From an uncultured bacterium (lineage in GTDB: Bacteria > Omnitrophota > Omnitrophia > Omnitrophales > Abzuiibacteriaceae): a stretch of 64,000 nt of DNA. The notes beneath the pieces are model-generated. The model did no database searches. It saw only the letters and a list, made by a program, of their open reading frames with translations, and had not been told where the DNA came from. Location of the stretch: the NCBI GenBank assembly GCA_964387845.1, contig CAYLXA010000002.1, positions 1 through 64,000 on the forward strand, read 5' to 3'. Of this stretch, positions 1 through 24,739 are shown piece by piece. The translations under genes were made by a program, and so were the position numbers. The first letter of the stretch is position 1, and every line of letters starts with the position of its first letter.

Positions 1-1260
1 CAAGGCTCTCCAAAGCCGGTGTCAATTGGGATGACCTCAATAAACTCAGCAAAGCGGGTGTTAATTGGGATGATTTGAATAAACTCTCTAAGGCCGGGGT
101 CAATTGGCAGGGCATCGAAGCCCTCTCCAAAGGCGGGGTCAATTGGACGGATGTGGGTGTCCTCAGTAAGGCCGGTATCAATTGGGATGATTTAAACAGG
201 CTCTCTAAAACAGGCGTCAATTGGGATGATTTAAAATCCTTATCCCGCGCAGGCGTCAATTGGGACGACCTCAGGTCACTCTCTAAGGCCGGGGTCAATT
301 GGCAGGGCATTGAGACTTTATCAAAAGCCGGTATTAATTGGGAGGGTATTCGAGAGCTTGGTTCGGCCGGGGTCAATTGGGATGATTTAGAGGCGCTTTC
401 AACCGCTGGCGTTAATTGGAGCAGTCTTCAGGCGTTGAGCCTTGCAGGGGTCAATTGGGAAGGGATTGAAACTTTATCAAAGTCCGGGGTCAATTGGGAT
501 GATTTCTCGCAGCTTTCAAAAGCAGGCGTCAATTGGGATGATTTGAAGCTGCTTAGCAGAACCGGAGTCAACTGGGATGATTTGCGCTCACTCTCGAAGT
601 CGGGTGTCAATTGGAGCGATTTAAGTTCGTTTTCTAAAGCAGGGGTCAATTGGGACGATTTAAAATCCCTTTCACGAACCGGAGTTAATTGGAATGATCT
701 CAGCCGGCTATCAGCGTCTGGCGTCAATTGGGATGATTTACGAGGACTGTCGCGCGCCGGTATCAATTGGGACGACTTAAGCACTTTTTCAAAAACCGGG
801 GTTAATTGGGACGATATTCAGTCGCTTTCTAAATCAGGCATTAACTGGAATGATATCAACCGGCTTTCTCAGACAGGTATTAATTGGAGCGGTTTGCAAG
901 CATTGAGTAAGGCGGGCGTTAATTGGGCCGGGATTGACGCCTTGTCCAAGGCTGGTGTCAATTGGGATGATATTAAATCGCTTAGCCAAGCAGGTATTAA
1001 TTGGCTGGATATCTATAATTTGAGCACTTCCGGTATTAATTGGTCCGGTATTTTAACGATGAGCAAAGCAGGTGTTAACTGGACCGATGTGGGCAGCATG
1101 AGTAAGTCCAATGTCAACTGGACGGATCTTGCTCGCATGACGGGCTCTGGTATGAATTGGACTGATTTGAGTGGAAAAACTCAAGCGGGCATTAACTGGA
1201 CCAATATTTTCTCACTGTCGACTTCCGGCGTTAACTGGGCAGAGGTAGCGCAGTTAGGAA
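1..1260 (+). repeat. About 32 tandem copies of a 39-nt (13-aa) in-frame repeat, consensus L-S-K-A-G-V-N-W-D-D-L-K-S.
   Basis: Direct reading: gtcaattgg recurs every 39 nt from position 1 to about 1260. The translated motif GVNW(D/Q/S)(D/G)(L/I)xxLSKA repeats. Confidence 0.9.
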
Positions 1261-2093
1261 GCCGAACGACCAGTATTTTAAATACAACCAATACTATCAA
1301 TACTTTGGTAGGAACAGCAGCCGACAGCACTACCACTAATACGTTGTTTGGACGGCTTAATTTAATCGATGATACGGTCAGCGGATTGGATGTCGATGCG
1401 CTTTCCGAATTGTTGGAAGGTTTGGATACAGAATCTATTGAAGCATTGAAAAATAATGTGGACTCAATCGCAGAGTTGGTTGGAGATTCAAGCGATACCA
1501 GCGCAGAGACACTCTTTGGATCTATCAATGCGGTCAGAAGCGTTGCCGATACGACCGGTATTGAAGAGCTCCTTGGAACGATTACGGACACGAAAGCATC
1601 ATCAACTGTTTTAGGAAAGATTGCAGATGTCCGGGAGACCTTAGATTCGATTGACGGCGTAACAGCCGATCTTAAAACAAAGTTAAAGGATTTGAGTGAT
1701 TCTGTGGGAACTCCGGGCGTTAAGGCCAGCGGATCGGTCCGTGATCAGGTGCAAACTGTCAAAGATAACATTCAAGAAATTCGCTTATACCTAGACAAAA
1801 TTTCAGATCAAGGGAAAGAAAATCTAGAAGTAGCGAAAGAAACGATCAATAGCATGATCGAGAAGTTCAATAAAACCGCGGAAGAATTGGGTTTTGTGGG
1901 TGTTAAATTAGACGAGCTTGGCCAAGGCCAAGAGGCGTTGGGTAACCAGGTTTTTGAAGATAAGCTCGAGGAAATTAAAACCTACGTTGTTGCGCTGCTG
2001 CAGGCCTTAAAACCGACATCGATCGACACCGGCGAAGAGGGCGCGGAGGCTCAAATCCAGCCGGTTGTAGTCGCATCGTTGTCGCAAGAGTAA
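1..2093 (+). CDS. 5'-partial repeat protein (13-aa GVNWDDL tandem repeats plus a helical/coiled-coil C-terminal domain). The frame is open to the window start, so the true start is upstream.
   Basis: The reading frame is open from nt 3. The repeats continue to the window edge. The ORF-track start at 75 is only an internal TTG. The C-terminal 270 aa are non-repetitive, acidic and helical. Confidence 0.8.
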   Translation, partial: RLSKAGVNWDDLNKLSKAGVNWDDLNKLSKAGVNWQGIEALSKGGVNWTDVGVLSKAGINWDDLNRLSKTGVNWDDLKSLSRAGVNWDDLRSLSKAGVNWQGIETLSKAGINWEGIRELGSAGVNWDDLEALSTAGVNWSSLQALSLAGVNWEGIETLSKSGVNWDDFSQLSKAGVNWDDLKLLSRTGVNWDDLRSLSKSGVNWSDLSSFSKAGVNWDDLKSLSRTGVNWNDLSRLSASGVNWDDLRGLSRAGINWDDLSTFSKTGVNWDDIQSLSKSGINWNDINRLSQTGINWSGLQALSKAGVNWAGIDALSKAGVNWDDIKSLSQAGINWLDIYNLSTSGINWSGILTMSKAGVNWTDVGSMSKSNVNWTDLARMTGSGMNWTDLSGKTQAGINWTNIFSLSTSGVNWAEVAQLGSRTTSILNTTNTINTLVGTAADSTTTNTLFGRLNLIDDTVSGLDVDALSELLEGLDTESIEALKNNVDSIAELVGDSSDTSAETLFGSINAVRSVADTTGIEELLGTITDTKASSTVLGKIADVRETLDSIDGVTADLKTKLKDLSDSVGTPGVKASGSVRDQVQTVKDNIQEIRLYLDKISDQGKENLEVAKETINSMIEKFNKTAEELGFVGVKLDELGQGQEALGNQVFEDKLEEIKTYVVALLQALKPTSIDTGEEGAEAQIQPVVVASLSQE

Positions 2094-2168: not shown

Positions 2169-3593
2169 ATGGTTACTTATCCTGGGAAAAGTATGATGCA
2201 TCATCTGGCCCATATCTTTATCAGAGCCGTTCTTTTGTGCAGTCTAGCGCACTGTTTTTTTGTCTCGAGAGCGCACGCAGAAGGCGAAGTTAAGATAAAA
2301 ATTTTAGCCATGAATCCGTCGCCGTCTCAAAAAATAGAATCCCTAGTCCGTCAAAACCTGCCGCCCGAAATCAAGCCGGAGGACGTTGTCGATAACGCCG
2401 GAATGGAAATCAAATTCAATACCGACGAGGGTGTTTATTATGTTTCAAAACAAGTAAACCTTGAACCGAAAGAAGCGGTAACGATCGAGGTTCTTGTCCG
2501 GAATGTCTGGCTTGTTCCTGAGGAACGATTGACAAGATTGAGGGACACCGTTTCAACAACCACCAAATCTCTCGCAAAGACAAAATACGAAAAAACAGCT
2601 CAGCTGCTACAGGACAAGGTTTCCGAGCGGATCGGAACAATTGAGGAGGAGCAGGGGCGCAATATCGGAATCGGTAAACGCATCGAGCTTTACCGCTCTC
2701 ACTTGAAGCAGCTGGATGGCATTGAAAAAGAAGTTCTGTCTATCAGCGCGCTCCGCGAACTTGAGGGTGAGCAAGCGGAGGGTGTTCGAACCGCCAAGCT
2801 TGTCATTTCAGCAGAGAACCCTTCCGATGAGCCGCGCAAAATGACCGTGCGCTCTGATTTGCCAAAAGAAATTACCGCGAACGATGTACTGGACAGGCTT
2901 GATTTCCTGCTTTTGTATGATGAAACGAAGCAAAGGTTTTCAGTCGAGAAGGAAGATCAATTTGAAGCTCGAGAAACGAAGAAATATGAAATCACGCTCC
3001 GGGATGTTTGGTATATTCCCAGGATCGAATTGGAACGCTATAAGGAACAAACCGACAAGCTGGTCGCTCTTTTAAAAGGCAGTGCCTATGAAAATTATGT
3101 AACACAACAAGCCAAAATCATTGACGATACGCTGGTATCGATTGACCAATTGCAAATTGAGGTGCAATCGGCCGAATCTATTCAGGATAGAATCGAAGCA
3201 TTTGCACTCAACAGTGAACGTTTGGGGCTTATTAATAAGAAGGTCAAAGAATTACAGGATTTGCTTTTGGAAGTGCCTATCAAACGGCAAGTCAGTGAAA
3301 TTGAAAAAATTAAGCAAGCTATTAAATCACTGACAAAAGTCATGGATATTATCCGAATGGGTTTTAAGCCAGATTTGTCCACAACGTGGTGGATCATTCT
3401 TGGCATCATTGCGTTCTTGATCGTTCTGTCTACTACGTTTTATGTAACATGGCTGTCGCGCTTAAAGGATGCAAAAGGCGGAGCGAAGGGAGTTAAGAAA
3501 GATAAAAAGGGGACTGCGGCAAAAACACCGGCCGGTCAAGCGCAGAGTACTGCCGCAGCTACTCAACCGGCCGCGGAAGGAAAGCCGGCATGA
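2169..3593 (+). CDS. Exported or membrane-anchored protein. It has an N-terminal signal or anchor, two internal ~90-aa domain repeats, a coiled coil, one C-terminal TM helix and a Lys/Ala-rich tail.
   Basis: N-terminal hydrophobic segment. Paired motifs VRNVWLVPEERL and LRDVWYIPRIEL. TM segment WWIILGIIAFLIVLSTTFYVTWL. The stop overlaps the atpA start (ATGA). Confidence 0.6.
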   Translation: MVTYPGKSMMHHLAHIFIRAVLLCSLAHCFFVSRAHAEGEVKIKILAMNPSPSQKIESLVRQNLPPEIKPEDVVDNAGMEIKFNTDEGVYYVSKQVNLEPKEAVTIEVLVRNVWLVPEERLTRLRDTVSTTTKSLAKTKYEKTAQLLQDKVSERIGTIEEEQGRNIGIGKRIELYRSHLKQLDGIEKEVLSISALRELEGEQAEGVRTAKLVISAENPSDEPRKMTVRSDLPKEITANDVLDRLDFLLLYDETKQRFSVEKEDQFEARETKKYEITLRDVWYIPRIELERYKEQTDKLVALLKGSAYENYVTQQAKIIDDTLVSIDQLQIEVQSAESIQDRIEAFALNSERLGLINKKVKELQDLLLEVPIKRQVSEIEKIKQAIKSLTKVMDIIRMGFKPDLSTTWWIILGIIAFLIVLSTTFYVTWLSRLKDAKGGAKGVKKDKKGTAAKTPAGQAQSTAAATQPAAEGKPA

Positions 3594-5080
3594 GCCAGTT
3601 AAGTTATAAAGAGAATGGGATTGTGAAAGCGCTTAGCGGATGTATTGCCAGCGTCATCAATCTGCAGAATTGCTTTCTAGGGCAATTGGTCAAATTTGGA
3701 TACGGCACAGAAGGAATTATCATGGGTTTTGATACACAATCAGCCCAAGTGCTGATTGTAAAAGAAAATGAGCCAATTACTCCCGGAAACGTAGTGGAGG
3801 CCACGCTAGAGCCCTTTAATATGCCAGTCGGCGACGGATATATAGGAAGGATCGTCAATCCTTTGGGTGAACTTCAGGACGGCCGAGAGGCAGTGAAGCC
3901 GGATAAATATATCCCGTATTTTAACGATGCTCCCGGAATTATGGACCGGGAAGGTTTGAGCGAAACGCTTGAAACCGGTATTAAACTTGTCGACAGCATG
4001 CTGCCGCTGGGCAAAGGCCAGCGGTCATTGATTTTAGGCGATAAAATGACCGGAAAAACGACCGTGCTGACGGACATTATGGTCAACCAAAAGGGCAAGG
4101 ATGTGATTTGTATTTACTGCGCAATCGGCAAACCGCGCTCATCCATGGCCCGCGTTGTTGATCTCTTTAAGGAAAAGGGCTGTTTTGATTACACAATCAT
4201 TCTAACTGCGCCCGCATCCAGCTCCCCGGGGCAGCAGTACCTAGCGCCTTATGCGGCGTGTTCGATCGGTGAGTATTTTATGCACAAAGGAAAACATGTT
4301 TTTGTCGGATTTGACGATTTTACAAAGCATGCATGGGCTTATCGCGAACTGTCTCTGCTGATGCAGGTGCCGCCAGGGCGCGATTCTTACCCGGGAGATA
4401 TTTTTTATTTGCACTCCCGCATGATCGAGCGGGCGGCCAAATTAAACAAACAACTGGGCGGCGGGTCCATGACGTTCATTCCCGTGGTCGAGCTTTTGGA
4501 GGGCGATTTGACAGCTTATGTTCCCACCAACCTGGTTTCAATGACAGACGGACAGATCTTTTTGAGCATGCCGCTTTTTAATGAAGGTTTCCGGCCTGCC
4601 GTCGACGTTGGTTTGTCCGTATCGCGCGTCGGCAGCCGCGTCCAATGGAAATCAACAAAAGCGGTGTCTAAGTCACTTCGTTTGGAGTTCATTCAATATA
4701 AAGAATTGCTCCGCATTAGCAAACTGCAAACAGGCGGACAATCGGACGAGGTTCGGGAAAAGCTTTCTCAAGGAAAAGTTTTACAAGCATTGCTAACCCA
4801 ACCAGCGAACAATCCCGTTCCGCTGGAAGTGCAAATCATGTGCTTCTTTGCAAAAGGGGAGAATTTGCTTAAGGATCTCGAAAAAGATCAAATCAACGAA
4901 CTGCAAACGGGGCTCTGGGATTACTCGAACAGCAATGATTCGGGCCTGATTAAATTAATTCGGGAGAAAAAGGATCTGACGGACGAAATTAAAACCCGTA
5001 TCCGAAATGTGATTAATGCCTATGTGAAGGAAATCAAGGCGCGGACGGTTGTGCCGGTTGATGAAGTCGAGGTTGGCTAG
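3590..5080 (+). CDS. atpA: F-type ATPase alpha subunit (divergent)
   Basis: Walker A GDKMTGKTT. Alpha signature PGRDSYPGDIFYLHSRMIERAAKL. Also TAYVPTNLVSMTDGQIF and VGLSVSRVGS. Confidence 0.85.
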   Translation: MSQLSYKENGIVKALSGCIASVINLQNCFLGQLVKFGYGTEGIIMGFDTQSAQVLIVKENEPITPGNVVEATLEPFNMPVGDGYIGRIVNPLGELQDGREAVKPDKYIPYFNDAPGIMDREGLSETLETGIKLVDSMLPLGKGQRSLILGDKMTGKTTVLTDIMVNQKGKDVICIYCAIGKPRSSMARVVDLFKEKGCFDYTIILTAPASSSPGQQYLAPYAACSIGEYFMHKGKHVFVGFDDFTKHAWAYRELSLLMQVPPGRDSYPGDIFYLHSRMIERAAKLNKQLGGGSMTFIPVVELLEGDLTAYVPTNLVSMTDGQIFLSMPLFNEGFRPAVDVGLSVSRVGSRVQWKSTKAVSKSLRLEFIQYKELLRISKLQTGGQSDEVREKLSQGKVLQALLTQPANNPVPLEVQIMCFFAKGENLLKDLEKDQINELQTGLWDYSNSNDSGLIKLIREKKDLTDEIKTRIRNVINAYVKEIKARTVVPVDEVEVG

Positions 5081-5092
5081 CGAGAGAGTGTT

Positions 5093-5314
5093 ATGCAGCA
5101 GACAATTATTTTAATCGGAATTATGGTGATCGCTGTGTTGGGTCCGGCCATCGTTATTGCAGTTGTTGGATTTGCGACCATTAAAGCGCTTGGCAGGAAC
5201 CCATCAGCTGCACCGAAGATATTTTTGGGAGTTATTTTAATGCTGGTTTTTGCCGAAGCCACATCAATCATTGCGCTTTTGGTCGTGTTTCAATTGTTTA
5301 GCGGCGGCCAATAG
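5093..5314 (+). CDS. atpE: F-type ATPase c subunit (proteolipid)
   Basis: 73-aa two-helix hairpin. Polar loop ALGRNP. Conserved carboxylate in the second helix (FAEATSI). Confidence 0.75.
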   Translation: MQQTIILIGIMVIAVLGPAIVIAVVGFATIKALGRNPSAAPKIFLGVILMLVFAEATSIIALLVVFQLFSGGQ

Positions 5315-5331: not shown

Positions 5332-6069
5332 ATGTTTATTATTCAATTTATATTACTTCAAGTAATTGTTTTCTCCGGCGTCATTTTTTTCTTAAAAAAA
5401 ATACTCTACGGTGATACGCAAAGCGCCATCAACCGCCTCAACCGAGAATACCAAGATTTGTTGAACAAACAGAAACAGCTTGCTCAGAAAGTTGAGGAGG
5501 CGGAAAAAGAGCTTGTTCTAAAAAAGGAAGAAGCGGTTCAGGTTAAAAATAAGATGACCACGCAGGCAATGGACGAAATTCGCCAACAAAAGGACGAAAC
5601 GGTCATGAAAGCCAAGCAGGAGGCTGAAGAGATTGTTGCAAAGGCAAAAGCAGCTGCGGACAAAAATTATCGGGAGATCGAGAAGCAAGTGAGGGCAAAG
5701 TTGACAGAAAACGCCGCAGACCTCCTGAGGCAATCGATTAGTGAGCGGATCATTAAAGCGACTCACACCGAATTAATTGCCGAATTTTTAGAAAGAGCAA
5801 AAAGCTTTGATCTGACCAATGTTGACCCAAGCATTCAGAAGTTAATGGTGAAAACAGCTCTTCCGCTTACAGCATCGGAAAAAGAAAAAATTAAAATGTT
5901 TGTGAATGAGCGATTGGGCCGGACGCTTGAGCTGGAAGAGGTTGAAGATAAAACACTTATTTCAGGCGTTGTGCTGATGTTTGGAACGCTGTTGATGGAC
6001 GGCAGTATGGTTAATTATATTAAGGAAGCAGAGCTGAAAATTAAACAAACCATCGAAAAGGAAACCTAA
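5332..6069 (+). CDS. ATPase b subunit fused to a delta (OSCP) C-terminal domain
   Basis: N-terminal TM helix plus long charged coiled coil (b-like). C-terminus LGRTLELEEVEDKTLISGVVLMFGTLLMDGSMVNYI resembles the delta-subunit C-terminal domain. Confidence 0.65.
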   Translation: MFIIQFILLQVIVFSGVIFFLKKILYGDTQSAINRLNREYQDLLNKQKQLAQKVEEAEKELVLKKEEAVQVKNKMTTQAMDEIRQQKDETVMKAKQEAEEIVAKAKAAADKNYREIEKQVRAKLTENAADLLRQSISERIIKATHTELIAEFLERAKSFDLTNVDPSIQKLMVKTALPLTASEKEKIKMFVNERLGRTLELEEVEDKTLISGVVLMFGTLLMDGSMVNYIKEAELKIKQTIEKET

Positions 6070-6075
6070 TCCGGC

Positions 6076-6975
6076 ATGGGTAAGGTAGCTCAGATCAAGG
6101 GCGATTTGGATGACGTCGAGGCGCTTCTTGAAATTATTACCATTTTAAAAGACGTTTCCACAAACCGGTTCTTTGCTTTTGCCCAGCAGAAAGACGATTT
6201 GAGCAAATTTCTGGAAATCTTTCTTATTTTCTTTGACATGGTTGCCGGCATTGAAACAACATGCCCGTTGGTACGGAATGAAAATCCGGCAACCGATATC
6301 GTGCTCATCACATCGGAGTCCAGTTTCATGTCACAAATGAATACCAGGGCCTGTAGTGCGGCGCTTGTAGAATTTCAAAAAAATCCAAGCGCAAGAATTG
6401 TTTGTGTGGGGCGCCGGGGTATCGACCGCTGCAAGCAGCTTGGAATGAAGGTGGATAAGTCTTATGAGAACGTGGATTTGGTCGGCCGTTATGAAACTTC
6501 GCTGATGATCCGGGATTATCTCATTGACCGCATCATGACCGGTACGACAGGAAAAGTGATGTGTATTTATATTTGGCCGAAAAGTTTCAGCGTTTTGAAA
6601 CCGCGCGTTGTGCGCTTGCTGCCCGCCACCGAGCTATTGAGCGATCAGGAAGAACAGGCGGCTGGAGAAGGGGAGCAAAAAGATGATAAACCAGTTCAGC
6701 AGGTGAGGGATGTGATTCAGGAGTCGGGAATTGACGGGATCATGAAAGTACTTGCCGACATCTGGGTTTCTTCGCGTCTTTTTGAAATTCTTTCGGATAC
6801 AAAATTGGCTGAAGCAGCTGCGCAATCGCAGCAGTTAGAATCGGCCATGGAAGGTCTTTCAAAAGAAAAGTCAGGATTGATGCTTGGTTTTAAAAAAGCG
6901 GTGCGCGGCGATTTGAATGCTGCGATGCGCGAAGTGTTTACGTCACAAAAAGCCATCAAATCAAGACGGGGATAA
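6076..6975 (+). CDS. atpG: F-type ATPase gamma subunit
   Basis: The C-terminal helix motif AEAAAQSQQLESAMEGLSKEKSGLMLGFKKAVRGDLNAAMREVFTSQ matches the gamma C-terminus. The central ITSE..FMSQMN region is also gamma-like. Confidence 0.7.
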   Translation: MGKVAQIKGDLDDVEALLEIITILKDVSTNRFFAFAQQKDDLSKFLEIFLIFFDMVAGIETTCPLVRNENPATDIVLITSESSFMSQMNTRACSAALVEFQKNPSARIVCVGRRGIDRCKQLGMKVDKSYENVDLVGRYETSLMIRDYLIDRIMTGTTGKVMCIYIWPKSFSVLKPRVVRLLPATELLSDQEEQAAGEGEQKDDKPVQQVRDVIQESGIDGIMKVLADIWVSSRLFEILSDTKLAEAAAQSQQLESAMEGLSKEKSGLMLGFKKAVRGDLNAAMREVFTSQKAIKSRRG

Positions 6976-6979
6976 ATAA

Positions 6980-8386
<1,407 letters not shown>

Positions 8387-8392
8387 GGATAC

Positions 8393-10579
8393 GTGGTGAT
8401 AATTAGTCCTGCAGAAAAAACATCATTTGATGCGCTGGTTAGTTCGGGCATCCTTCAGAAAGACGATCTAGAGAAGGTTGTCAAAGCCGCTGCGCACGAA
8501 AAGCTCTCGCTGTCTGAATTTGTCGTACGCTCCGGCCGGATCAAAGATGCCGAGCTTCCGAATGTTTATGCAAAGTACTTCAAGGTTCCTGCCATTCAAC
8601 TTAAATCGATCGAAACTGACCGTGCCGTTATCGAAAAGGTTCCCGTTAAGTTCTCCAATTATTATAAATTTTTCCCCGTTAAACTGCACAATCACAGGCT
8701 GACAATCGCCATTTCACAACCGATGGATGTCGGTACGCTGGATGAAATCCGGTTAGGGCTTGGGTTTGACATTGATTTCGTTTTCGCTTCAGGGCGTGAT
8801 ATCGAAGAAATGAGCAAGCGTTATTATGGATTAGGTGCCGAGACAGTTGACCGCATCATGATGCAAAAAAGCGGACAAGATTTACCCGCTTCCGCGCACA
8901 TGAGTGCCGCCGTTCAGGTTGAGGACATAGAAAAACTTGCAGAGACCGCATCAGTTGTGCAGCTCGTGAATCAAATTTTCCTGGATGCTTACCGAAAAGG
9001 CGCCAGCGATATTCATATCGAGCCTTACCGAGGCCGTGTTCGGCTGCGGTATAGGATTGACGGTGTTCTGCAGGAAGCGCGTGTGCCGCCCGATTTGATG
9101 CGGTTTTTTATGCCGATTTTGTCACGCATTAAAATCATGGCAAATCTTAATATCGTGGAACGCCGGTTGCCGCAAGATGGCAAGGCGCGCGTCAAGACAC
9201 AGGATCAAACCTTAGATTTACGGATTTCATCGATCCCCACACCGCTTGGCGAGAGCATGGTGGTCCGGATCCTTCCCAGTAAAATGATTCTGAGCTTGGA
9301 AGAACTTGGTTTTGAGGCGGATCATTTGAAGATATTTAAGGACCTGCTCAAGCGGCCCCATGGCGTGATTTTCCTGACAGGCCCGACCGGCAGCGGTAAA
9401 AGCACGACCTTATACTCTGGGTTCAGCTCAATGGATACGATGGTGAAGAAAGTTGTAACCATCGAAGACCCGATTGAGTATGAAATCGACGGAATCACAC
9501 AAGTGCAGGTTATGCCCGAGATCGGCCTCACATTTGCACGCGGTCTCCGGAGCATGCTTCGGCACGATCCGGACGTGATGATGGTCGGCGAAGTCCGGGA
9601 TTTGGAAACGGCCGATATTGCCATTCGGGCGGCTTTGACGGGGCATTTGATTTTATCGACATTGCACACCAACGACGCCGCGAGCGGAATTACGCGCCTG
9701 ATCGACATCGGAGCGCAGCCTTATCTGGTCGCTTCGAGCGTTATCGCTTTTATCGCGCAGCGGCTGGTTAGGGTGATTTGCCCCAACTGCAAGCAAGAGA
9801 ACAAATCTCTTTCGGAAGCAACCCTCAATCTCATCAAATCCGACCTAAATTTGACAGCGGACGATTCAGTTAAAACTTATATCGGAACCGGTTGTGATGA
9901 GTGTAATCAAACAGGATTTCGCGGGCGTGTCGCTGTGCACGAGATCATTCTGATCAATGAAGAAATCCGAAAATTGATCTACACAAAAGCATCGTCAGAG
10001 GAAATTAAGTTGAGGGCTCGCAGCCTCGGCATGAGGACGCTCAGGCAGGATGGATGGAAAAAGGTCTTGAGAGGCATTACGACTGCCAACGAAGTGATGG
10101 AAATTACGCCGGCCGATGAGATTGAAAACAGGGAATTGAAAGAGATGTTTCAAGAGGTTACGATTGCCCAGTCTCCGATCAAGCAGACCGATGAGTTTGT
10201 GGAGCGCAGGCGCTATCCCCGAGCGGTTGTTAAGTTTCCTTTGTCATTCCGCGTCATTGGCCAAGGATCTCCCGCTTCCAAAAGTGCATCGAGCACCGAA
10301 GAATGGGTGGAAGCCGAATCGGAGGATCTGAGTGCCAGCGGACTCATTTTTTCTAGCGCTCAAATCGCACAAATCGGCCAATTGCTCGAGTTTAAGCTAG
10401 AACTCCCCGATCGAAGTCAACCGGTCCAATGCATCGGACGCGTGCTCAGGGTTGAAGAGAGCGATCAAAATATATCCCGAAAGACAGTGGTGTCCTACCG
10501 TGTTTCAGTAACTTTTTTGTCGATTAATAGTGTCGACCGATCAAGAATTGAAGCTTTTTGCCAGGGCCGCGTGTCATGA
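8393..10579 (+). CDS. gspE: GspE/PilB-family secretion/pilus ATPase with a C-terminal PilZ domain
   Basis: Walker A GPTGSGKST. His box. Tetracysteine CPNC..CDEC. C-terminal extension with RRRYPR and DLSASG PilZ motifs. Confidence 0.85.
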   Translation: MVIISPAEKTSFDALVSSGILQKDDLEKVVKAAAHEKLSLSEFVVRSGRIKDAELPNVYAKYFKVPAIQLKSIETDRAVIEKVPVKFSNYYKFFPVKLHNHRLTIAISQPMDVGTLDEIRLGLGFDIDFVFASGRDIEEMSKRYYGLGAETVDRIMMQKSGQDLPASAHMSAAVQVEDIEKLAETASVVQLVNQIFLDAYRKGASDIHIEPYRGRVRLRYRIDGVLQEARVPPDLMRFFMPILSRIKIMANLNIVERRLPQDGKARVKTQDQTLDLRISSIPTPLGESMVVRILPSKMILSLEELGFEADHLKIFKDLLKRPHGVIFLTGPTGSGKSTTLYSGFSSMDTMVKKVVTIEDPIEYEIDGITQVQVMPEIGLTFARGLRSMLRHDPDVMMVGEVRDLETADIAIRAALTGHLILSTLHTNDAASGITRLIDIGAQPYLVASSVIAFIAQRLVRVICPNCKQENKSLSEATLNLIKSDLNLTADDSVKTYIGTGCDECNQTGFRGRVAVHEIILINEEIRKLIYTKASSEEIKLRARSLGMRTLRQDGWKKVLRGITTANEVMEITPADEIENRELKEMFQEVTIAQSPIKQTDEFVERRRYPRAVVKFPLSFRVIGQGSPASKSASSTEEWVEAESEDLSASGLIFSSAQIAQIGQLLEFKLELPDRSQPVQCIGRVLRVEESDQNISRKTVVSYRVSVTFLSINSVDRSRIEAFCQGRVS

Positions 10580-11793
10580 AAAAATTTGTTTATCAAGCCA
10601 AGAAAAAACCCGGTGAATTTGTGAATGGATCATTGATGGCCGATTCGCAAGATGAAGCTATCGACAAGATAAGTGCGCAGGGCTTATTTCCAATTGAAGT
10701 CAAAGAAGAGGTGGCTCAAGAAGTTCCCAGAACAGCGGTGCCGCAAAACTTTTCAAAACGCATACCCTCACGAGACTTGATCATGTTTTACCGGCAAATC
10801 GCCAAAATGACGCAATCCGGCATTCCAATTTTAAGAGCTATTGGTTTTATTTACGACCAATCTACGAAATCGCCCCTGAGACCCGTTTTAGAAAATGTGC
10901 AGACCATGATCGGCCAGGGCGAGAACTTTTCGGGCGCTCTTAGCCGGTACCCGCGCGTATTTTCATCCTTTGATTTAGCTATGATCGCAGCCGGAGAGAG
11001 TGTTGGGAAACTGAATGAATCGCTTTTGCAGCTTGCAAAACACAGGGCCGACCAGCAGGCGCTTTTGTCGCGCGTCCGCGGTGCGTTGGCTTATCCGGCA
11101 TTTATTCTCGTGATGGGTGTTTTGACCGTAAGCTTCATGTTGACGCATGTGATTCCGCAATTTTCACGCTTTTTCGCCGATCTCGGCCAAAATTTACCCA
11201 TTCCGACACAAATTTTGATCGCAATTAGCCAGTGGCTTCAGGCAAACTGGGTTGGGATTGTTGCTATATTGGTTTTTCTATTTTTTTTATTACAGCGGAT
11301 TTTAAAATCTGAGAGCGAAAGGCGGATTTTTGATCGCCTGGTCCTTAAGGTTCCGCAAGTTGGGAATTTGATCTTAAAAGTGGAGATTGCACGATTTAGC
11401 CGATCTCTTGAAATTTTAATCAAGAATAAGATGCAGGCGCTTCAAGCGGTCTCAATCGTGATTCCGATTGTTCAAAATCGCTCCATCCGAGATGAGTTGG
11501 AAAAAAGTCGCCAGCAAATGGAGCAGGGCGGTTATTTGAGCGAAGGCCTAGGGCAATCTGAGGTTTTTCCGAAATTTGTCCATTATCTCATCAGAACGGG
11601 CGAAGAGTCGGGGCGTTTGGATGAAGCGCTTGCCGAAATTGCGGATTGGTACGAATCGGAAATTGATGAAACCGTCAAAGTGACAACCAGTTTAATGGAG
11701 CCCCTTGTTATTTTAGTCGTCGGGTTTATTCTAGGTCTGATCGTTATAGCGGTTTTGATGCCGGTATTTAGCATGAACGCCGCGATTCAATAG
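10576..11793 (+). CDS. gspF: GspF/PilC inner-membrane platform protein
   Basis: GspF-type duplicated cytoplasmic domains and three TM segments. ATG overlaps the gspE stop (ATGA). Confidence 0.85.
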   Translation: MKKFVYQAKKKPGEFVNGSLMADSQDEAIDKISAQGLFPIEVKEEVAQEVPRTAVPQNFSKRIPSRDLIMFYRQIAKMTQSGIPILRAIGFIYDQSTKSPLRPVLENVQTMIGQGENFSGALSRYPRVFSSFDLAMIAAGESVGKLNESLLQLAKHRADQQALLSRVRGALAYPAFILVMGVLTVSFMLTHVIPQFSRFFADLGQNLPIPTQILIAISQWLQANWVGIVAILVFLFFLLQRILKSESERRIFDRLVLKVPQVGNLILKVEIARFSRSLEILIKNKMQALQAVSIVIPIVQNRSIRDELEKSRQQMEQGGYLSEGLGQSEVFPKFVHYLIRTGEESGRLDEALAEIADWYESEIDETVKVTTSLMEPLVILVVGFILGLIVIAVLMPVFSMNAAIQ

Positions 11794-11810
11794 CTAACAG
11801 AGGAATTAAA

Positions 11811-12251
11811 ATGAAACATTATTTTCATCATCAAAAAATGTACCAGCGAGGGTTTTCACTTATCGAAATTCTGCTGGTTGTTGTTATCATCGGAACGCTT
11901 GCCGGCATGATGATTCCGCGGATTACGGGGCGTTCCGAACAGGCCCGCATGGCAGCTGCCAAAGCAGATGTTAACGTTAACATTCCAACGGCGCTAAAAC
12001 TTTACGAACTCGACAATGGGTTTTTTCCGACAACTGATCAGGGTTTGACCGCGCTGTTAAAAAGACCCGATACTCAACCGACACCACAAAACTGGAACGG
12101 GCCGTATCTAGAAAAAATGCCCATCGATCCTTGGGGCAGGCCGTATCATTACAGTTCGCCTGGGGTCAATCGGCCGCACGATTATGACTTATTTTCTTCC
12201 GGCAAAAACGCCGGAAAGGAGAAGGTGGATGATGATATCAAGAACTGGTAG
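11811..12251 (+). CDS. gspG: Major pseudopilin GspG
   Basis: Prepilin N-terminus QRGFSLIEILLVVVIIG. GspG hallmark DPWGRPYHY. Confidence 0.85.
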   Translation: MKHYFHHQKMYQRGFSLIEILLVVVIIGTLAGMMIPRITGRSEQARMAAAKADVNVNIPTALKLYELDNGFFPTTDQGLTALLKRPDTQPTPQNWNGPYLEKMPIDPWGRPYHYSSPGVNRPHDYDLFSSGKNAGKEKVDDDIKNW

Positions 12252-12660
12252 ACGGCGGGCTAGCGCACCTTGTTTAAAATCGCAAACCGGGGTAACTCTG
12301 GTTGAAACCTTGGCAGCCGTTGTCATTTTATCAATCGGGATTGTCGCGGTGTATCAACCGCTTCTACGGTCATTGACGGTGCTGCATGAAATGGATGCCC
12401 GGCTGGAAGCGGACCGGTTGGCATCAGATGAGCTTTGGTTGTTAAAAATGAACCAAACTCGTCTCCAGGCCCTCTCAAAGGCTTCCGAGCAAAGTCAGGC
12501 TGTTGGTGCCGAGCGTGCTTATGCGTACGCAATTGAATCAAAGCCCCTCACAGAAGATAAGGTTTTAAACATGGTTCGTTTAAGGATGGAGTGGAATATC
12601 TCAGGCCGTTTAAAAGGAATTACGCAAACCAGTTATGTTGAAATTCCAAACGCGAATTAA
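12229..12660 (+). CDS. Minor pseudopilin (GspH/I-like)
   Basis: Prepilin-type N-terminus GVTLVETLAAVVILSIG. About 143 aa. The ORF-track start at 12184 overlaps gspG, so the ATG at 12229 is preferred. Confidence 0.65.
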   Translation: MMISRTGRRRASAPCLKSQTGVTLVETLAAVVILSIGIVAVYQPLLRSLTVLHEMDARLEADRLASDELWLLKMNQTRLQALSKASEQSQAVGAERAYAYAIESKPLTEDKVLNMVRLRMEWNISGRLKGITQTSYVEIPNAN

Positions 12661-13258
12661 ACAAACCGCCGGTTTTACCCTAGTGGAAACCATGCTGGCG
12701 GTTCTTATTATTTCAATCGTGAGCGCAGCGCTCTATGGGATTTTTTCCAATGGTGTCCAGGTCTGGCATCGCGCTAGTACTCCGAAGCTAAACTACGAAA
12801 TCCATTTCTTTTTTGAGCAATTAGAAGCGGATCTCCGGAATCTTTTGCCGAACGATCAAACACCTTTCAAGGGACAAAACTATTCTTTTGAATTCTCCTC
12901 ACTGAGCCCGAGCGTAAAAATTGTTAATGCCGCAGAATCGCGCGGCGTGCCGGCCCGCCTTAAGTATGATTTTCACAGTTCAAAACACTCCGTCAGCCGA
13001 ATCGTGAGAGATTATTACAACATTCTGAATAAACAAACCAAGCCGTCGTCAGAGCGAAATTTGCTTCAGGGGATCAGCCGGTGTACGTTTCAATATTTTA
13101 AGAAAGTAAATGAATTACAGGCGCCTTCTTGGAATAATAGCTGGTCAGACCTCTGCGTGCCGAATGCGGTCAAAGCAAGTGTCGAATATATGGAAGCGGG
13201 GCGCCTGCGTGTATTGACCAAAGTAATTCCTATTCCGGCGGGCGGGTGTTTTGTATGA
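12635..13258 (+). CDS. Minor pseudopilin (GspJ-like)
   Basis: Prepilin-type N-terminus AGFTLVETMLAVLIISIV. 207 aa. Confidence 0.65.
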   Translation: MLKFQTRIKQTAGFTLVETMLAVLIISIVSAALYGIFSNGVQVWHRASTPKLNYEIHFFFEQLEADLRNLLPNDQTPFKGQNYSFEFSSLSPSVKIVNAAESRGVPARLKYDFHSSKHSVSRIVRDYYNILNKQTKPSSERNLLQGISRCTFQYFKKVNELQAPSWNNSWSDLCVPNAVKASVEYMEAGRLRVLTKVIPIPAGGCFV

Positions 13259-14760
13259 AACTCCCCGGAACGCCTGCAAGTGGTTTGGGGCTGAAAAAGG
13301 CATCTAAGTCCAGCGAGACCATTTTAATCGAGCTGAGCGACAGCCGTATCAAAATCGTATCTCTCAGCGAATCACAGGGCAATTTAACCGTAGAAAGCGT
13401 TGCGCAAAAATCGGTTGTCGGGCTGTCAGACCAAGATGTTGCGGCATTTATCGCGCAATATTACAAGAAGCAAAATATTAAATCGAAGCAACTGGTTTGC
13501 GCGATACCTTCCGGTTATTTGATTTCCAAAAATGTTGATATGCCTTCCAGTGATCCGGAGGAAATAAAAAAAATAATTGATTTGCAGGCGGGGCGTTATA
13601 CGCCGTATTCGCGCGAGGAAATCGTCATTGATTATCTCTCAAGCAGCAAGCCCGGTCAGCACTACACCAATGTTTTATTAATTATTGTCCATCGTAAAAA
13701 TATTGATCGGCTACTCAAAATCAGCGAACTTGCCGGTCTTGAAGTATCCAGGATTGTCTGCGCATCAGAAGCAATGGCGCTCATTTGCGACCAAGTCCGT
13801 CAGCGCATCCTGCAGAAGAACTCAGCCGTCACAGGGATCCATGTTGCTGAGGAACAGATCGATTTAATATTTTCTGACCAGGGCCAACTTGTTTTTGCGA
13901 GAAGTATTCCGGTCGGATTTCGTCACTTTTCAGCCGGAAAGGAATCGGCAGATGCCGATTTTGCAAAGGAGCTCGACCAATCTTTTTCGGCTTATCAAAG
14001 CCAGGGCATCGGCCAGCCCGTTGAATTGGTTGCTTTTTCTGGCCTTGCCAAACAGTTGGCATCGCTGGAGGGTACGATCAAAAGCTCCGTTCCTTATGCG
14101 TCTGCCAGTTCTCTTGTGTTTGAAATGATACCGGAGGAAAAAGAGTTTCACTTATCAGATGAAGCTTTGGCAGCTTGCAAAAATGATCCGGAGGTATCAT
14201 TTTTTTCGGTTATTGCTTCGGTTTGGATGCTTAAATCACTTAAGCTTGACTTCGTCCCGAAGGAAGTAAAGCTAAGAAAAAAAGTTCAAGAGGGGAGCCG
14301 AGATATTATTGCTTTAGGCGTTCTTTTGATGACCCTTATTTTGTTGATCTGTGTTTTCCTGGGCGTGCAGATTTATCTGAAAAAGGACATCATCAAGCGG
14401 CTTGAATCTATTAATGTGAAGACGTCTGACCAAGCCAAGACCCTCGAGCAGGCTTCCACCAAGAGCCGTGTTCTGCGTAATTTGCTGGATAGCCGCGGAA
14501 AGGGCCTTTATGTTTTTGAGAAAATATCAACGGTGATCGGTGAGGATATTTATTTGGCTAGTTTTAGTTTTGATAAAGACGACATTATTAAATTGGCGGG
14601 CACCGCAGATTCCATGTCGCGTGTTTTTGCATTTGTTACCGAATTGGAAGAATCTCAATATTTTAAGGATGTTAAAACCAATTCAACAAAATCCAGGCGC
14701 CAAGGCCAGCGAGAAGTGGCTGATTTTGAAATCGAGTGTACGTTTTCCGAAGGTATTTAA
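13255..14760 (+). CDS. PilM-PilN fusion / GspL-like assembly protein (cytoplasmic actin-like domain, one TM, periplasmic domain)
   Basis: N-terminal PilM-like region, then TM IIALGVLLMTLILLICVFLGV, then a PilN-like C-terminal domain. ATGA overlap with the upstream gene. Confidence 0.6.
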   Translation: MKLPGTPASGLGLKKASKSSETILIELSDSRIKIVSLSESQGNLTVESVAQKSVVGLSDQDVAAFIAQYYKKQNIKSKQLVCAIPSGYLISKNVDMPSSDPEEIKKIIDLQAGRYTPYSREEIVIDYLSSSKPGQHYTNVLLIIVHRKNIDRLLKISELAGLEVSRIVCASEAMALICDQVRQRILQKNSAVTGIHVAEEQIDLIFSDQGQLVFARSIPVGFRHFSAGKESADADFAKELDQSFSAYQSQGIGQPVELVAFSGLAKQLASLEGTIKSSVPYASASSLVFEMIPEEKEFHLSDEALAACKNDPEVSFFSVIASVWMLKSLKLDFVPKEVKLRKKVQEGSRDIIALGVLLMTLILLICVFLGVQIYLKKDIIKRLESINVKTSDQAKTLEQASTKSRVLRNLLDSRGKGLYVFEKISTVIGEDIYLASFSFDKDDIIKLAGTADSMSRVFAFVTELEESQYFKDVKTNSTKSRRQGQREVADFEIECTFSEGI

Positions 14761-14775
14761 CAAAAAGAAAAACAT

Positions 14776-15411
14776 ATGATTGATGCATTCTATGCAAAGT
14801 TAAAAGGAAGGGAACGAGTACTTTTCGTGGCGGCGGTAAGCTGTGTTGTTATGGTTTTGATGGACCGGCTTGTCATTGGCCCCATTTTGTCACAGATGAA
14901 GCTGATGGATGCCGAGATTTCCGCAAAAACACAGACAGTCCGCCGGAATATGCGAATCCTTTCATTTCGCGATAGTATTTTAAATGATTATTCGCGTTAC
15001 AGCGCCTACTTTGACTCGGTAAATCGAAAACAGGAAGAGATTATTTCCAGACTTCTCAAGGAAATCGAATCAATCGCTGCTCAGAAATCGATCACAATTG
15101 TTAATATTAAGCCCGGTGATGTGCAGGAAAATCCGGTCTTTCATGAGTATAAAACCACCTTGGAATTTTCAGGTAAGCTGTTGGACATACTCGGTTTTAT
15201 GAGCTTGTTGGAAGAATCTGACTATTTGTTCAGAATCACTGAATTTTCGATGACGCCGAAATCAAAGAATTCAGATGTTATGAAGTGCGTCCTCAATGTG
15301 ACCAGAATATTGATGACAGCCGAAAATGTGCCTTCACCGGCGGTAAGCGTGGCGCAGCCGTCTAATGCAGCCGCGCCCGGCGCTTTACCGTTTGGAGGGG
15401 AACCGGCGTGA
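14776..15411 (+). CDS. PilO/GspM-like bitopic assembly protein
   Basis: Single N-terminal TM, a coiled coil and a ferredoxin-like C-terminal region. Position follows the GspL-like gene. Confidence 0.5.
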   Translation: MIDAFYAKLKGRERVLFVAAVSCVVMVLMDRLVIGPILSQMKLMDAEISAKTQTVRRNMRILSFRDSILNDYSRYSAYFDSVNRKQEEIISRLLKEIESIAAQKSITIVNIKPGDVQENPVFHEYKTTLEFSGKLLDILGFMSLLEESDYLFRITEFSMTPKSKNSDVMKCVLNVTRILMTAENVPSPAVSVAQPSNAAAPGALPFGGEPA

Positions 15412-16120: not shown

Positions 16121-16468
16121 TTATTTTGAATCAATCGCTTTCTGGCACTGATACTCCAAAATACCCACGGTTTGCGCAAGCGCTTCGATGCGGGAATTTT
16201 GCTCATTGATATAAATGGTCAGGAATAGGGTTTGCAGCAACAGGAAAGCCAGCAAGCAAAAAAAAGCAAAGTTGCTTGGTAGTGTAAAACCCATCCAGCT
16301 TGAAATTTGAAAAAGCGCCTGGTCAACAATGGAGAAAAAGAGGGCAATAACTGACGTTCCAAGCCACAACACAGAAAATTTAAATGTCATTTTTTGCCGC
16401 CGGATTAAATTAATGACGACCAGCATAATCACTACGGAAACAAAAATTGCCACGGTTCGTGCTTGCAT
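16121..16468 (-). CDS. DUF2304-like small membrane protein (glycosyltransferase-associated)
   Basis: 115 aa with three TM helices. Sits immediately beside a Dpm1-like GT2, as is usual for this family. Confidence 0.5.
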   Translation of the reverse strand: MQARTVAIFVSVVIMLVVINLIRRQKMTFKFSVLWLGTSVIALFFSIVDQALFQISSWMGFTLPSNFAFFCLLAFLLLQTLFLTIYINEQNSRIEALAQTVGILEYQCQKAIDSK

Positions 16469-16480
16469 GAGATATGCTCC

Positions 16481-17188
16481 TTATTTTTTTTCTTTTAAAA
16501 GATCCACCAAAATTGCAAATGTTACTTTTATCATGTAATACAGAGTGGCAAAATAGCGGATTGAAGATACACCGCTTTTTCGTTCGCGCATGTTAACAGG
16601 GACTTCCCCGATACGCGCAGAAAGCCGGTTGGCAATCTTGATTGCTTCCGGCTCAGGGAAATCAATCGGGTAGTAATCTGCAAAATAGGGAATTAGTTTT
16701 TTGCCCGTTGCGCGGAAACCGGATGTGGGGTCGGTTAAATGAATTCCGGTTAAAATACTCAAAAGGTTGGCAAAAAAACGGATCCCAATCCGGCGCGTGA
16801 ACGTAGATTTAAAGTGGGATGACGTGGTTAAGAACCGGCTCCCAATGCAAAGATCCAGCTTGTCGGACAGGACCGGTTCTAGGATTGTGTGCAGAAATGC
16901 CGGATCATGCTGAGCATCGCCGTCAAGCTGAATAACCGCGTCGTATTTTTCTTTTAAGGCAACTTTGTACCCGGTCTGGACGGCGCCGCCAATACCCAGA
17001 TTAAAAGGGTGGGTAACGATTGATGCGCCTCCAGCAACCGCTTCATCGCGAGTTGTGTCTTTAGAGCCGTCATTAATAACAAGCGGCGTATAGGTTGGAT
17101 ATTCACGCTTGATGGTTTGCACTAACTCACGGATTGAGCCGCTTTCGTTATAGGCGGGTATAACAATTAAAACTTTTGGTAGCGACAT
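16481..17188 (-). CDS. GT2 polyprenyl-phosphate sugar synthase (Dpm1-like)
   Basis: VLIVIPAYNE. INDGSKD. LDGDAQHD, a GT-A DxD region. Confidence 0.8.
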   Translation of the reverse strand: MSLPKVLIVIPAYNESGSIRELVQTIKREYPTYTPLVINDGSKDTTRDEAVAGGASIVTHPFNLGIGGAVQTGYKVALKEKYDAVIQLDGDAQHDPAFLHTILEPVLSDKLDLCIGSRFLTTSSHFKSTFTRRIGIRFFANLLSILTGIHLTDPTSGFRATGKKLIPYFADYYPIDFPEPEAIKIANRLSARIGEVPVNMRERKSGVSSIRYFATLYYMIKVTFAILVDLLKEKK

Positions 17189-17253
17189 GCGATTATCTTA
17201 TCGTTGCGCAAGGCCAAGCTCAAGTCAATTCTATCAACGGAAAATTGAACCAC

Positions 17254-19800: not shown

Positions 19801-20123
19801 GGCAAGCAGGTTTAAAAATATATACGGTTTTTTTGGCGGCTTTTCTCGTTGCACAATCGGGAATTTTGCTAGCCGAAGATCAAATGGCTCAAGATAGCGG
19901 TATCCGAAAATATGGGGTTGTTCACAATATTGCCGATGACCGCAAAGTTGAAAAGGTGGGCGGTATTTACGAGCCTGAGGGATTGGATAAGTATTTGCAA
20001 AGGCGGTTAGACGATGTGACTGCCCGCTTGGATGAATTTTCAGAAAAGTTAAACAAGATTGACCAAAAACTAGAATCCTTGAGTTTGCAGTCGCGAACAG
20101 CGTCCGACGGCGATCATTCATGA
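19797..20123 (+). CDS. Small exported coiled-coil protein
   Basis: Signal peptide followed by a coiled coil. Both start and stop are coupled to neighbours by overlap. Confidence 0.4.
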   Translation: MRQAGLKIYTVFLAAFLVAQSGILLAEDQMAQDSGIRKYGVVHNIADDRKVEKVGGIYEPEGLDKYLQRRLDDVTARLDEFSEKLNKIDQKLESLSLQSRTASDGDHS

Positions 20124-21139
20124 ATCAAGCCCAGTTAAGCGGAAAAAGGGGTAGTATTTTCGTGCTTTGCATGTGGGTTTTGCTTTTACTGAGCATTTTT
20201 TCAATCTCAGTCAGTTATTCAGTTCGCCAAAGGATTAAGGTCGTGGAGCGGCTTGAGACGCGTCAACACTTAAGACGCATTGCCGAGTCAGGTATTCAAA
20301 AGGCAATTTACATTCTGAAATTAGACGACAACGGATATGACGGTTGGTCCGAAGGGTGGTACCAAAATGAAGATGAATTTAAAGACATTGCAATCAACGG
20401 CGGCCGGTTTTCGATTTTTCAAAAATCGTCAGGAGTTATCCGCTACGGAATCACCGATGAGGAGTCGAAAATCAATATCAACTTGGTTGGTTCTCCCGTT
20501 GTTTTTCGGCGTTTGTTTCATGACGGCCTGGGATTAGACGAAACAATATCGAATCAGCTGGCAGAATCCATTCTAGACTGGCGGGACGAAGATGACAATC
20601 CGCGCGGAGCCGGAGCGGAAAGCGCATATTATCAAACGCTAAATCCGCCGTATCGCGCCATGAATTCGGATTTTGCCTCGCTTGACGAACTTCTCTTCAT
20701 TAAAGGGGTCGATCAAGGCGTTTTTAGTCTAATCGCTCCTTATTTGTCTGTTGACAGCACAGGAAAAATCAATTTGAATACGGCGAGCACACCAGTTTTG
20801 CGCGCGATGGGTTTTAGCGAGTCTTTGGCAGGGAAGCTGGTAATGTTCAGATCCGGGCTGGATCAGATTCTTGGAACCAAAGACGATAATGCATTGCAAG
20901 ATTCGCAAGACATTGTCGCAGCGATCGATCAATTCGCATCGTTGACCGGTGATGAGAAAAACAGTCTGAAAGATTTTATAGAATCCGGGCTTTTTACGAT
21001 CAAATCATCATATTTTCAGATTCAAGCGAACGCGCGGCTGGGCAACCGCGGGTCTGAGTTATCGGTAGTCAGCGTGGCTGAAAAGAATGATTCGACGATC
21101 AATATCATAGCCTGGCGTGAAAGTTTTTATGTTGAATAA
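20120..21139 (+). CDS. gspK: Minor pseudopilin GspK
   Basis: Hydrophobic N-terminus GSIFVLCMWVLLLLSIF. GspK-type helix-hairpin-helix motifs KININLV and KINLNTAS. Confidence 0.7.
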   Translation: MNQAQLSGKRGSIFVLCMWVLLLLSIFSISVSYSVRQRIKVVERLETRQHLRRIAESGIQKAIYILKLDDNGYDGWSEGWYQNEDEFKDIAINGGRFSIFQKSSGVIRYGITDEESKININLVGSPVVFRRLFHDGLGLDETISNQLAESILDWRDEDDNPRGAGAESAYYQTLNPPYRAMNSDFASLDELLFIKGVDQGVFSLIAPYLSVDSTGKINLNTASTPVLRAMGFSESLAGKLVMFRSGLDQILGTKDDNALQDSQDIVAAIDQFASLTGDEKNSLKDFIESGLFTIKSSYFQIQANARLGNRGSELSVVSVAEKNDSTINIIAWRESFYVE

Positions 21140-24293: not shown

Positions 24294-24718
24294 GCACTCT
24301 TTCGGATAAGGCCTTTTGAATGATTCCAGTCAATGACCCAGCTGTAGCGGATTTCTTCTAATCGCTTTTGTGCGATTTCAGCACTTGAAAAAAATGCAAG
24401 CCCAATCGATTCTCCCGGCTTTGGATTTAAAACCAGTGGGCATAGATAGCTTTGTGCATCATGGTAAAATTTTTCGATTTCCAGATCTTGGCCGAATGGC
24501 TTGTCGGATACAAACGAAATAGCGCCCGAGGATGGCAATAGGGTCTTTAACGGCTTCAACTCAGAACCCGGTACCGGGAAGCCAATGTCAGTTCCGTTTA
24601 AAAGGCTGTGCTTTAGAGCGGTTTCGATCGGCTCTTCTTTGGCAGCTCTGACAAGAAGCATGCTCGCCAAGATCGATATACAGAACAAACTATGCAATAT
24701 CAAACGAAATGATGTCAT
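24290..24718 (-). CDS. Hypothetical exported protein
   Basis: Signal peptide. Start-stop overlap with the flanking genes. Confidence 0.35.
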   Translation of the reverse strand: MTSFRLILHSLFCISILASMLLVRAAKEEPIETALKHSLLNGTDIGFPVPGSELKPLKTLLPSSGAISFVSDKPFGQDLEIEKFYHDAQSYLCPLVLNPKPGESIGLAFFSSAEIAQKRLEEIRYSWVIDWNHSKGLIRKSA

Positions 24719-24739
24719 ATGTATTTAAGTCGCACGTTG

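Follow-up and report, generated by a model that had tools for sequence, protein, structure and literature searches.

A two-module periplasmic membrane protein most likely ties a giant repeat protein to an unusual F-type ATPase machine in Omnitrophota

Introduction

The gliding motor of Mycoplasma mobile pairs an F1-type ATPase, which is proposed to power the surface machine, with large surface proteins. Omnitrophota are ultra-small bacteria, probably predators or parasites, and to our knowledge no attachment or attack machinery has been described for them.

The closest described locus is that of Seymour et al. [quoted passage not shown] The same text likens the enzyme to the type 2 and type 3 ATPases of Mycoplasma, and both have been proposed to power a surface machine (PMC10066038). 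The 64,000-nucleotide stretch of Omnitrophota DNA analysed here, referred to as the window, contains a locus of the same type, with the alpha and beta genes lying within 10 kb of type-IV-filament genes, and its layout of alpha and beta next to such genes is shared by 44 related loci.

Earlier work had noticed giant proteins, genes for pili or secretion and a 'non-respiratory' F-type ATPase in each other's neighborhood, and the subject of the present work, a protein that we call X, is encoded by the gene that links them: some lineages have it fused to the giant protein, in others it carries a c-di-GMP synthase domain, and in nearly all it leads the ATPase operon. While the locus type is already published, the X family, its fold and its GGDEF-bearing and fused variants were not found in the literature searched, and neither was the retention of a c-ring and stalk in a cluster that has no gene for subunit a. 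In its accessible portion the paper of Seymour et al. makes no mention of X, of a missing subunit a, of the c-ring and b/delta fusion, of GGDEF variants or of fusions (PMC10066038). No mention of X was found in the giant-gene preprint or in the 2026 complete-genome preprint, and a search for F-type ATPases that lack subunit a and are linked to secretion produced nothing beyond Seymour 2023.

Results

The X gene and the topology of its product. The open reading frame of X is genuine and specifies a protein of 474 amino acids, with M9 and M10 as alternatives to a start codon that is uncertain. The coordinates of the gene, of the parts of its product and of the neighboring genes are collected in Table 1. 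The TGA stop codon of X (3591-3593) overlaps the ATG of the alpha gene (3590-3592) in an ATGA junction, as a reading of the sequence alone had it. Such a 4-nt overlap is present in only 7-8 of the 37 loci compared, and in most of the loci that are without it the spacer between X and alpha is at most about 20 nt.

Table 1. Features of the window that are discussed in the text (positions in nucleotides of the window)
Feature	Position	Strand	Basis or remark
Upstream repeat-protein gene, 3' part	1..2093	+	frame 3 open from base 1
X (subject of study)	2169..3593	+	474-aa type-I membrane protein
X signal peptide, aa 1-37	2169..2279	+	hydropathy and sequence; predicted cleavage after AHA
X module 1: beta-sandwich aa 41-111 and three-helix bundle aa 118-204	2289..2780	+	AlphaFold2
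X module 2: beta-sandwich aa 208-278 and helical bundle/connecting helix aa 285-396	2790..3356	+	AlphaFold2
X transmembrane helix, aa 403-436	3375..3476	+	hydropathy, AlphaFold2, family motif PDLSTTWWIILGIIAFL..FYVTW
X cytoplasmic tail, 38 aa	3477..3590	+	basic, Ala/Pro-rich, disordered; pLDDT <50
F1 alpha subunit	3590..5080	+	Pfam/NCBIfam; Walker A GDKMTGKT intact
c subunit	5093..5314	+	GRNPSAAPKI loop, invariant Glu in FAEA
b/delta fusion, peripheral stalk	5332..6069	+	Pfam/NCBIfam
gamma subunit	6076..6975	+	Pfam/NCBIfam
F1 beta subunit	6983..8386	+	Pfam/NCBIfam; catalytic motifs intact
GspE/PilB-type ATPase with C-terminal PilZ	8393..10579	+	motifs RRRYPR, DLSASG
GspF, GspG, two further pseudopilins, PilM-PilN fusion, PilO-like	10558..15411	+	
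GspK-like pseudopilin	20120..21139	+	

Hydropathy analysis gives only two hydrophobic segments, at residues 13-34 and 401-430. The first terminates in AHA/EGE, which is typical of a signal-peptidase site, and in the homologues the same position is occupied by small-x-small residues followed by acidic ones. In the homologue alignment the transmembrane (TM) helix is the best-conserved non-structural segment of the protein, with a conserved face whose residues (F416, F424, W428 and L432) recur at a spacing of about 4, and with no conserved Arg or other buried polar residue. The tail contains 7 Lys and Arg against 2 Asp and Glu, for a net charge of +5, along with 11 Ala and 3 Pro, and throughout the clade to which the window's X belongs it is disordered and 30-40 residues long; the tail of the window's X has no recognisable output domain. 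These features show a Sec-exported, periplasm-facing, bitopic type-I inner-membrane protein with a short basic cytoplasmic tail. The sequence-only reading had proposed a periplasmic protein with a hydrophobic N-terminal signal, a single C-terminal TM helix and a Lys/Ala/Pro-rich tail, and all of this stands: the signal is a cleavable peptide with its AHA site, the helix is placed by both hydropathy and the structural model, the tail has the composition given above, and the predicted topology, that of a bitopic protein, supports the periplasmic placement.

An internal duplication and a new ectodomain. The two halves of X align by BLASTP with E 1e-11 and 27% identity over 152 residues, and HHalign comparison of the two repeat sub-alignments gives a probability of 99.8% (E 9.8e-30, 153 columns), so that module 2 is a paralogue of module 1. 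An AlphaFold2 model, calculated with 43 homologues (pLDDT 86.3, pTM 0.70), orders the chain as signal peptide, first beta domain, helices, second beta domain, helices, TM helix and tail, with the limits listed in Table 1. In this model the repeat unit is about 170 residues long, with a beta-sandwich of six to seven strands preceding a three-helix bundle, and the two beta domains are separated by about 90 residues and hence non-adjacent. Module 1 retains the motifs NPS, LPxE and (D/N)VW in the homologue alignment. Two paralogous domains of about 90 residues, followed by some 150 residues of coiled coil, had been read from the sequence. The paralogy is upheld by the HHalign comparison, but the size and adjacency of the domains are not, given the longer unit and the distance between the beta domains, and the coiled coil is contradicted by the model, in which the helical parts form bundles and not one long coiled coil.

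Searches with X against Pfam and NCBIfam returned no family, with nothing better than E 0.01 and none of the matches ATPase-related, and a sequence-profile search of the PDB gave chance matches only. Comparison of the model with the PDB by Foldseek yielded no relative (best E 0.025, TM-score 0.14), fold matches were of a generic kind only, and neither the sequence-profile nor the fold searches recognised a ligand-binding fold or, among secretion and pilus proteins, a match to T2SSC, PilN, PilO or PilP. Thus in Pfam, NCBIfam, the PDB and Foldseek no assignment to a known unrelated family emerges. The statement that X has the architecture of no canonical F-type subunit is likewise confirmed, there being no match in Pfam or NCBIfam to the a, b, delta, epsilon or AtpI families, unlike the situation for the five other ATPase genes of the window, which all match subunit families. 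The ectodomain of X, in which a beta-sandwich is joined to a three-helix bundle, represents a new extracytoplasmic domain family with no counterpart in Pfam or the PDB.

Several specific identities were considered and rejected. The label FliL, attached by JGI to one homologue, has no Pfam match behind it, and the corresponding PDB profile match (E 0.31) extends over the TM helix and tail only. A divergent subunit a would have five or six TM helices and a conserved Arg directed at the c-ring, as compared with the one TM helix of X and its lack of a conserved Arg, while a second peripheral stalk is at odds with the location of most of X on the periplasmic side. GspC and PilP were set aside because X matches neither and carries its TM helix at the wrong terminus.

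The X family and its GGDEF-bearing members. A word-indexed search finds 70 homologues of 416-496 residues, and an exhaustive profile search extends the family to 959 cluster representatives, of which 816 reach E <= 1e-10. All named homologues come from Candidatus Omnitrophica/Omnitrophota; X is a real protein family of this phylum for which no description was found in the literature. Many relatives are longer, at 600-690 residues, and append a GGDEF domain to a signal peptide, a pair of modules and a TM motif that correspond to those of X; the X profile recovers them at E 1e-48 to 1e-77. Their TM motif, which is shared with the fused relatives described below, reads TTWKII..FLG as compared with TTWWIILGIIAFL in X. 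Since the GGDEF and RxxD motifs are both kept, the GGDEF domains look active, as far as can be judged from sequence motifs. Two GGDEF genes, at loci that we number L037 and L039 and that were found with a single GGDEF protein as query, were examined in context and both occupy the slot of X ahead of the ATPase genes. In X itself there is no match to a GGDEF domain, and only the 38-residue tail is present where the relatives carry one.

Single-module forms of X occur in the most divergent clusters (L034 and L036). In a rough neighbor-joining tree, which has no support values, the clade of the window's X comprises short forms only, without GGDEF, and in the remainder of the family GGDEF, short and fused forms are mixed. 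X is best read as a GGDEF-less member of a receptor-like family and not as a plain ATPase subunit.

Gene order around X. The genomic context of X-family genes was compared in 46 loci, and in 44 of these F-type ATPase genes lie immediately downstream. The cluster runs from a giant or repeat protein through X and the F-type ATPase genes to GspE, GspF, GspG and further pseudopilins, the ATPase set consisting of alpha, usually epsilon, c, a b/delta fusion, gamma and beta, with a second alpha in some loci. Two loci are of particular value. At L024 the repeat protein, X, GspE and GspF are present, with X directly 5' of GspE, and the ATPase genes are absent, which speaks for independence of X from the ATPase. 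At L045, the most distant member sampled, an X paralogue is found in a DUF58/VWA/BatA operon. The linkage of X to a divergent ATPase, which the sequence-only reading had put forward for a synteny search, is very strong and the opposite of the routine separation from ATPase genes that would have counted against that reading. That reading had also placed X in the position usually taken by atpI, atpB or other accessory genes; here the association with the ATPase holds (44/46), but a plain accessory subunit does not, because the GGDEF relatives, the giant-protein fusions, L024 and L045 together make such an assignment too narrow.

A number of variations were noted in the course of this comparison. 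Two alpha-type paralogues are found beside beta in the more distant clusters L037, L039, L042, L043 and L044. At L029 (5495-5725), L030 (6839-7060) and L041 (13604-13840) the c gene is succeeded by an additional, divergent c-like gene, the copy at L029 being without the carboxylate, and at L008 (3025-4854) alpha and epsilon are apparently fused in one reading frame of 605 aa. The GspE gene of L039 (12595-14463) is located within the ATPase set, between c and b/delta, and a transposase fragment lies just 5' of the X-GGDEF gene of the same locus. A 624-aa, membrane-protein-like ORF is inserted between gamma and beta at L034 (14569-16443). Genes for a secretin, a TPR protein and one or two proteins with an FGE-sulfatase domain recur 5' of the giant protein at L039, L041, L042 and L044, and at L044 an FGE-sulfatase gene is also found between epsilon and c.

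The upstream protein and its fusions to X. The protein encoded upstream of X in the window contains approximately 33 copies of a 13-residue GVNWDDL-type repeat, with a period of 39 nt, followed by a helical C-terminal domain of about 200-240 residues (positions ~1365-2090). At 33 loci the upstream protein ends in this domain, including cases in which the rest of its chain is dissimilar. In relatives the upstream gene exceeds 2500-3500 aa, and in many assemblies the contigs end inside it.

Four proteins of 1167-2029 aa (P0118, P0129, P0136 and P0123) are fusions, each of which begins with a signal peptide and a large extracellular portion and has X modules, a TM helix and a short tail at its C-terminal end. 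In three of them, P0118, P0129 and P0136, the upstream-type C-terminal domain directly precedes X module 1. P0118 occupies the exact syntenic slot of X, the order at its locus being secretin, TPR, two FGE-sulfatases, the fusion protein, epsilon, c, b/delta, alpha, alpha', gamma, beta and GspE/F/G. In the rough neighbor-joining tree the fusions are confined to the more distant half of the X family, outside the clade of the window. Fusion of the X modules to the giant protein constitutes Rosetta-stone evidence that X and the upstream protein are one functional unit.

The ATPase operon. The alpha and beta subunits of the window pass the canonical atpA and atpD models with 521 and 528 bits, above cut-off, and score 270-416 bits against the MSC_0619/0618 and MMOB1660/1670 models, for which the cut-offs are 520-850. 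The best model for the b/delta fusion is alt_F1F0_F0_B, at 59.6 bits with a cut-off of 224.7. The c subunit is near-invariant across lineages in which the X proteins are only 40-50% identical, keeping both the RNP loop and the F[AT]EA carboxylate, and its Glu is invariant in about 35 loci. No gene for subunit a was found in the 64-kb window or in L001-L041 by phmmer and motif regular expressions, a weak test in that the phmmer query, run against the ORFs of the window and of these loci, was an approximate E. coli AtpB sequence. An epsilon gene is absent from the window. In the KO table of Seymour et al., as accessible, one species cluster is listed with KOs for alpha, beta and V-type subunits and with none for a, b or c (PMC10066038). 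Only the C-terminal part of delta is retained in the b/delta fusion of the window, and alpha begins about 20 residues into the canonical model.

The secretion apparatus and other genes of the window. The beta gene stops at 8386 and GspE begins at 8393. The PilZ domain of GspE, with its RxxxR and [DN]xSxxG motifs, is intact in 27 of 28 loci, the window included. MshEN was considered as a c-di-GMP site and set aside, as the Pfam match is to the general N1E domain and the first motif is without Arg. The PilM-PilN fusion (13246-14760) is a single protein of 504 aa with a GspL-like arrangement. The interval 16121-19800 encodes an STT3/PglB-type oligosaccharyltransferase of 874 aa, between the PilO/TPR genes and GspK, together with a GT2 glycosyltransferase and a DUF2304 protein on the opposite strand; the presence of the oligosaccharyltransferase in the cluster hints at glycosylation of the pilins or of the giant protein. 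Further along, ORFs of 482, 142, 554, 536 and 684 aa in the intervals 22845-26404 (-), 30965-32575 (-) and 43965-46019 (+) have no Pfam match and lie amid polysaccharide and glycosylation genes, and a protein of 1074 aa (49777-53001), with a spermidine-synthase-like domain and C-terminal TPR repeats, is encoded near genes for ornithine/arginine decarboxylase and saccharopine dehydrogenase.

Discussion

X most likely ties the giant protein to an unusual ATPase machine that is without subunit a, its proton-channel subunit. Our preferred explanation, for which we consider the case to be evenly balanced, is that X serves as the inner-membrane base of the giant or repeat protein in the Omnitrophota supercluster, anchoring it beside the ATPase and the GspE/F platform. 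The fusions, in combination with the topology, make X the membrane-proximal, membrane-anchored end of the giant-protein unit. [quoted passage not shown] In the GGDEF-bearing relatives the X module may signal through c-di-GMP to the PilZ domain of GspE, and in the clade of the window this GGDEF output would have been lost while the anchoring or scaffolding role was kept.

The main rival, compatible with the base-module explanation in that the two are not mutually exclusive, makes X an integral ATPase subunit that replaces subunit a. The TM helix would pack against the c-ring and b/delta as a stator, and the periplasmic domain would hold it firm against structures in the periplasm, allowing ATP-driven rotation of the c-ring to perform work. 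The overlap with alpha and the very high conservation of the TM helix are just as compatible with an integral ATPase subunit: X stands first in the operon, and no other non-structural segment is as well conserved as its helix, one face of which is kept at a spacing of ~4 residues. Also in favor are the failure to find a subunit a gene in the window or L001-L041, the near-invariant c subunit with its Glu kept and, in the accessible KO table, the species cluster for which KOs of alpha, beta and V-type subunits are listed but none of subunit a (Seymour et al., PMC10066038). However, a single helix with no conserved Arg or buried polar residue offers nothing for an ion path, the same TM motif is found in GGDEF enzymes and in giant-protein fusions, and L024 has X without any ATPase gene. 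On balance we regard replacement of subunit a by X as unlikely.

According to a second rival X is a degenerate periplasmic receptor, a sensor of the diguanylate-cyclase type that has lost its GGDEF domain, senses a periplasmic or surface cue and regulates the secretion or pilus machine with no structural role. An ectodomain and TM helix in common with active-looking GGDEF proteins, the conserved PilZ domain on GspE and a two-module extracytoplasmic architecture resembling that of sensor proteins all speak for this. It is difficult, however, to see a route for the signal through the disordered tail of 30-40 residues in the window's clade, no ligand-binding fold was recognised, and the giant-protein fusions favor a structural link; a purely sensory X is in our estimation rather improbable. 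Finally, a role for X in alignment or connection within the T2SS/T4P-like apparatus, joining the inner-membrane platform to the secretin in the manner of GspC or PilP, is very improbable, for although X invariably shares its cluster with GspE/F/G, directly precedes GspE in L024 and has a periplasm-facing beta-sandwich as do GspC HR and PilP, it has no sequence or fold match to T2SSC, PilP, PilO or PilN, its TM helix is C-terminal and not N-terminal, and separate genes exist for PilM-PilN and PilO in the window and for T2SSC in L041.

A more ambitious proposal, a long shot, makes X the transmembrane coupler of a new kind of surface machine, with a rotary ATPase that lacks subunit a passing force or torque to a giant extracellular repeat protein. 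Were this so, F1, gamma, the Glu-bearing c-ring and the b/delta stalk would hydrolyse ATP, the giant protein would emerge beside the T2SS-like apparatus, and the assembly, controlled by c-di-GMP, would correspond in a diderm to the gliding motor of Mycoplasma mobile. The locus yields a list of parts, and of contacts open to testing, of a machine in which a rotary ATPase may serve a purpose other than ion transport.

Comparison with known systems

With the receptor-type diguanylate cyclases of the family, the Omnitrophota proteins of 600-690 aa, X has in common the ectodomain, the TM helix and the predicted topology; it differs from such cyclases in lacking GGDEF and in having an ectodomain that falls outside the sensor families described in Pfam and the PDB. 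A resemblance to the N-ATPase operon is suggested by the b/delta fusion, which scores best against alt_F1F0_F0_B, yet the score is below cut-off (59.6 < 224.7 bits), and the window is without AtpQ, AtpR and subunit a and has a different gene order. The Mycoplasma type 2 and type 3 clusters are like the window in that an F1-type ATPase is encoded with large surface proteins and not with a complete Fo. In contrast to those clusters, the window has c, b/delta and gamma, its alpha and beta subunits are canonical by HMM and score below the Mycoplasma cut-offs, and the Omnitrophota organism possesses a T2SS-like apparatus with a secretin.
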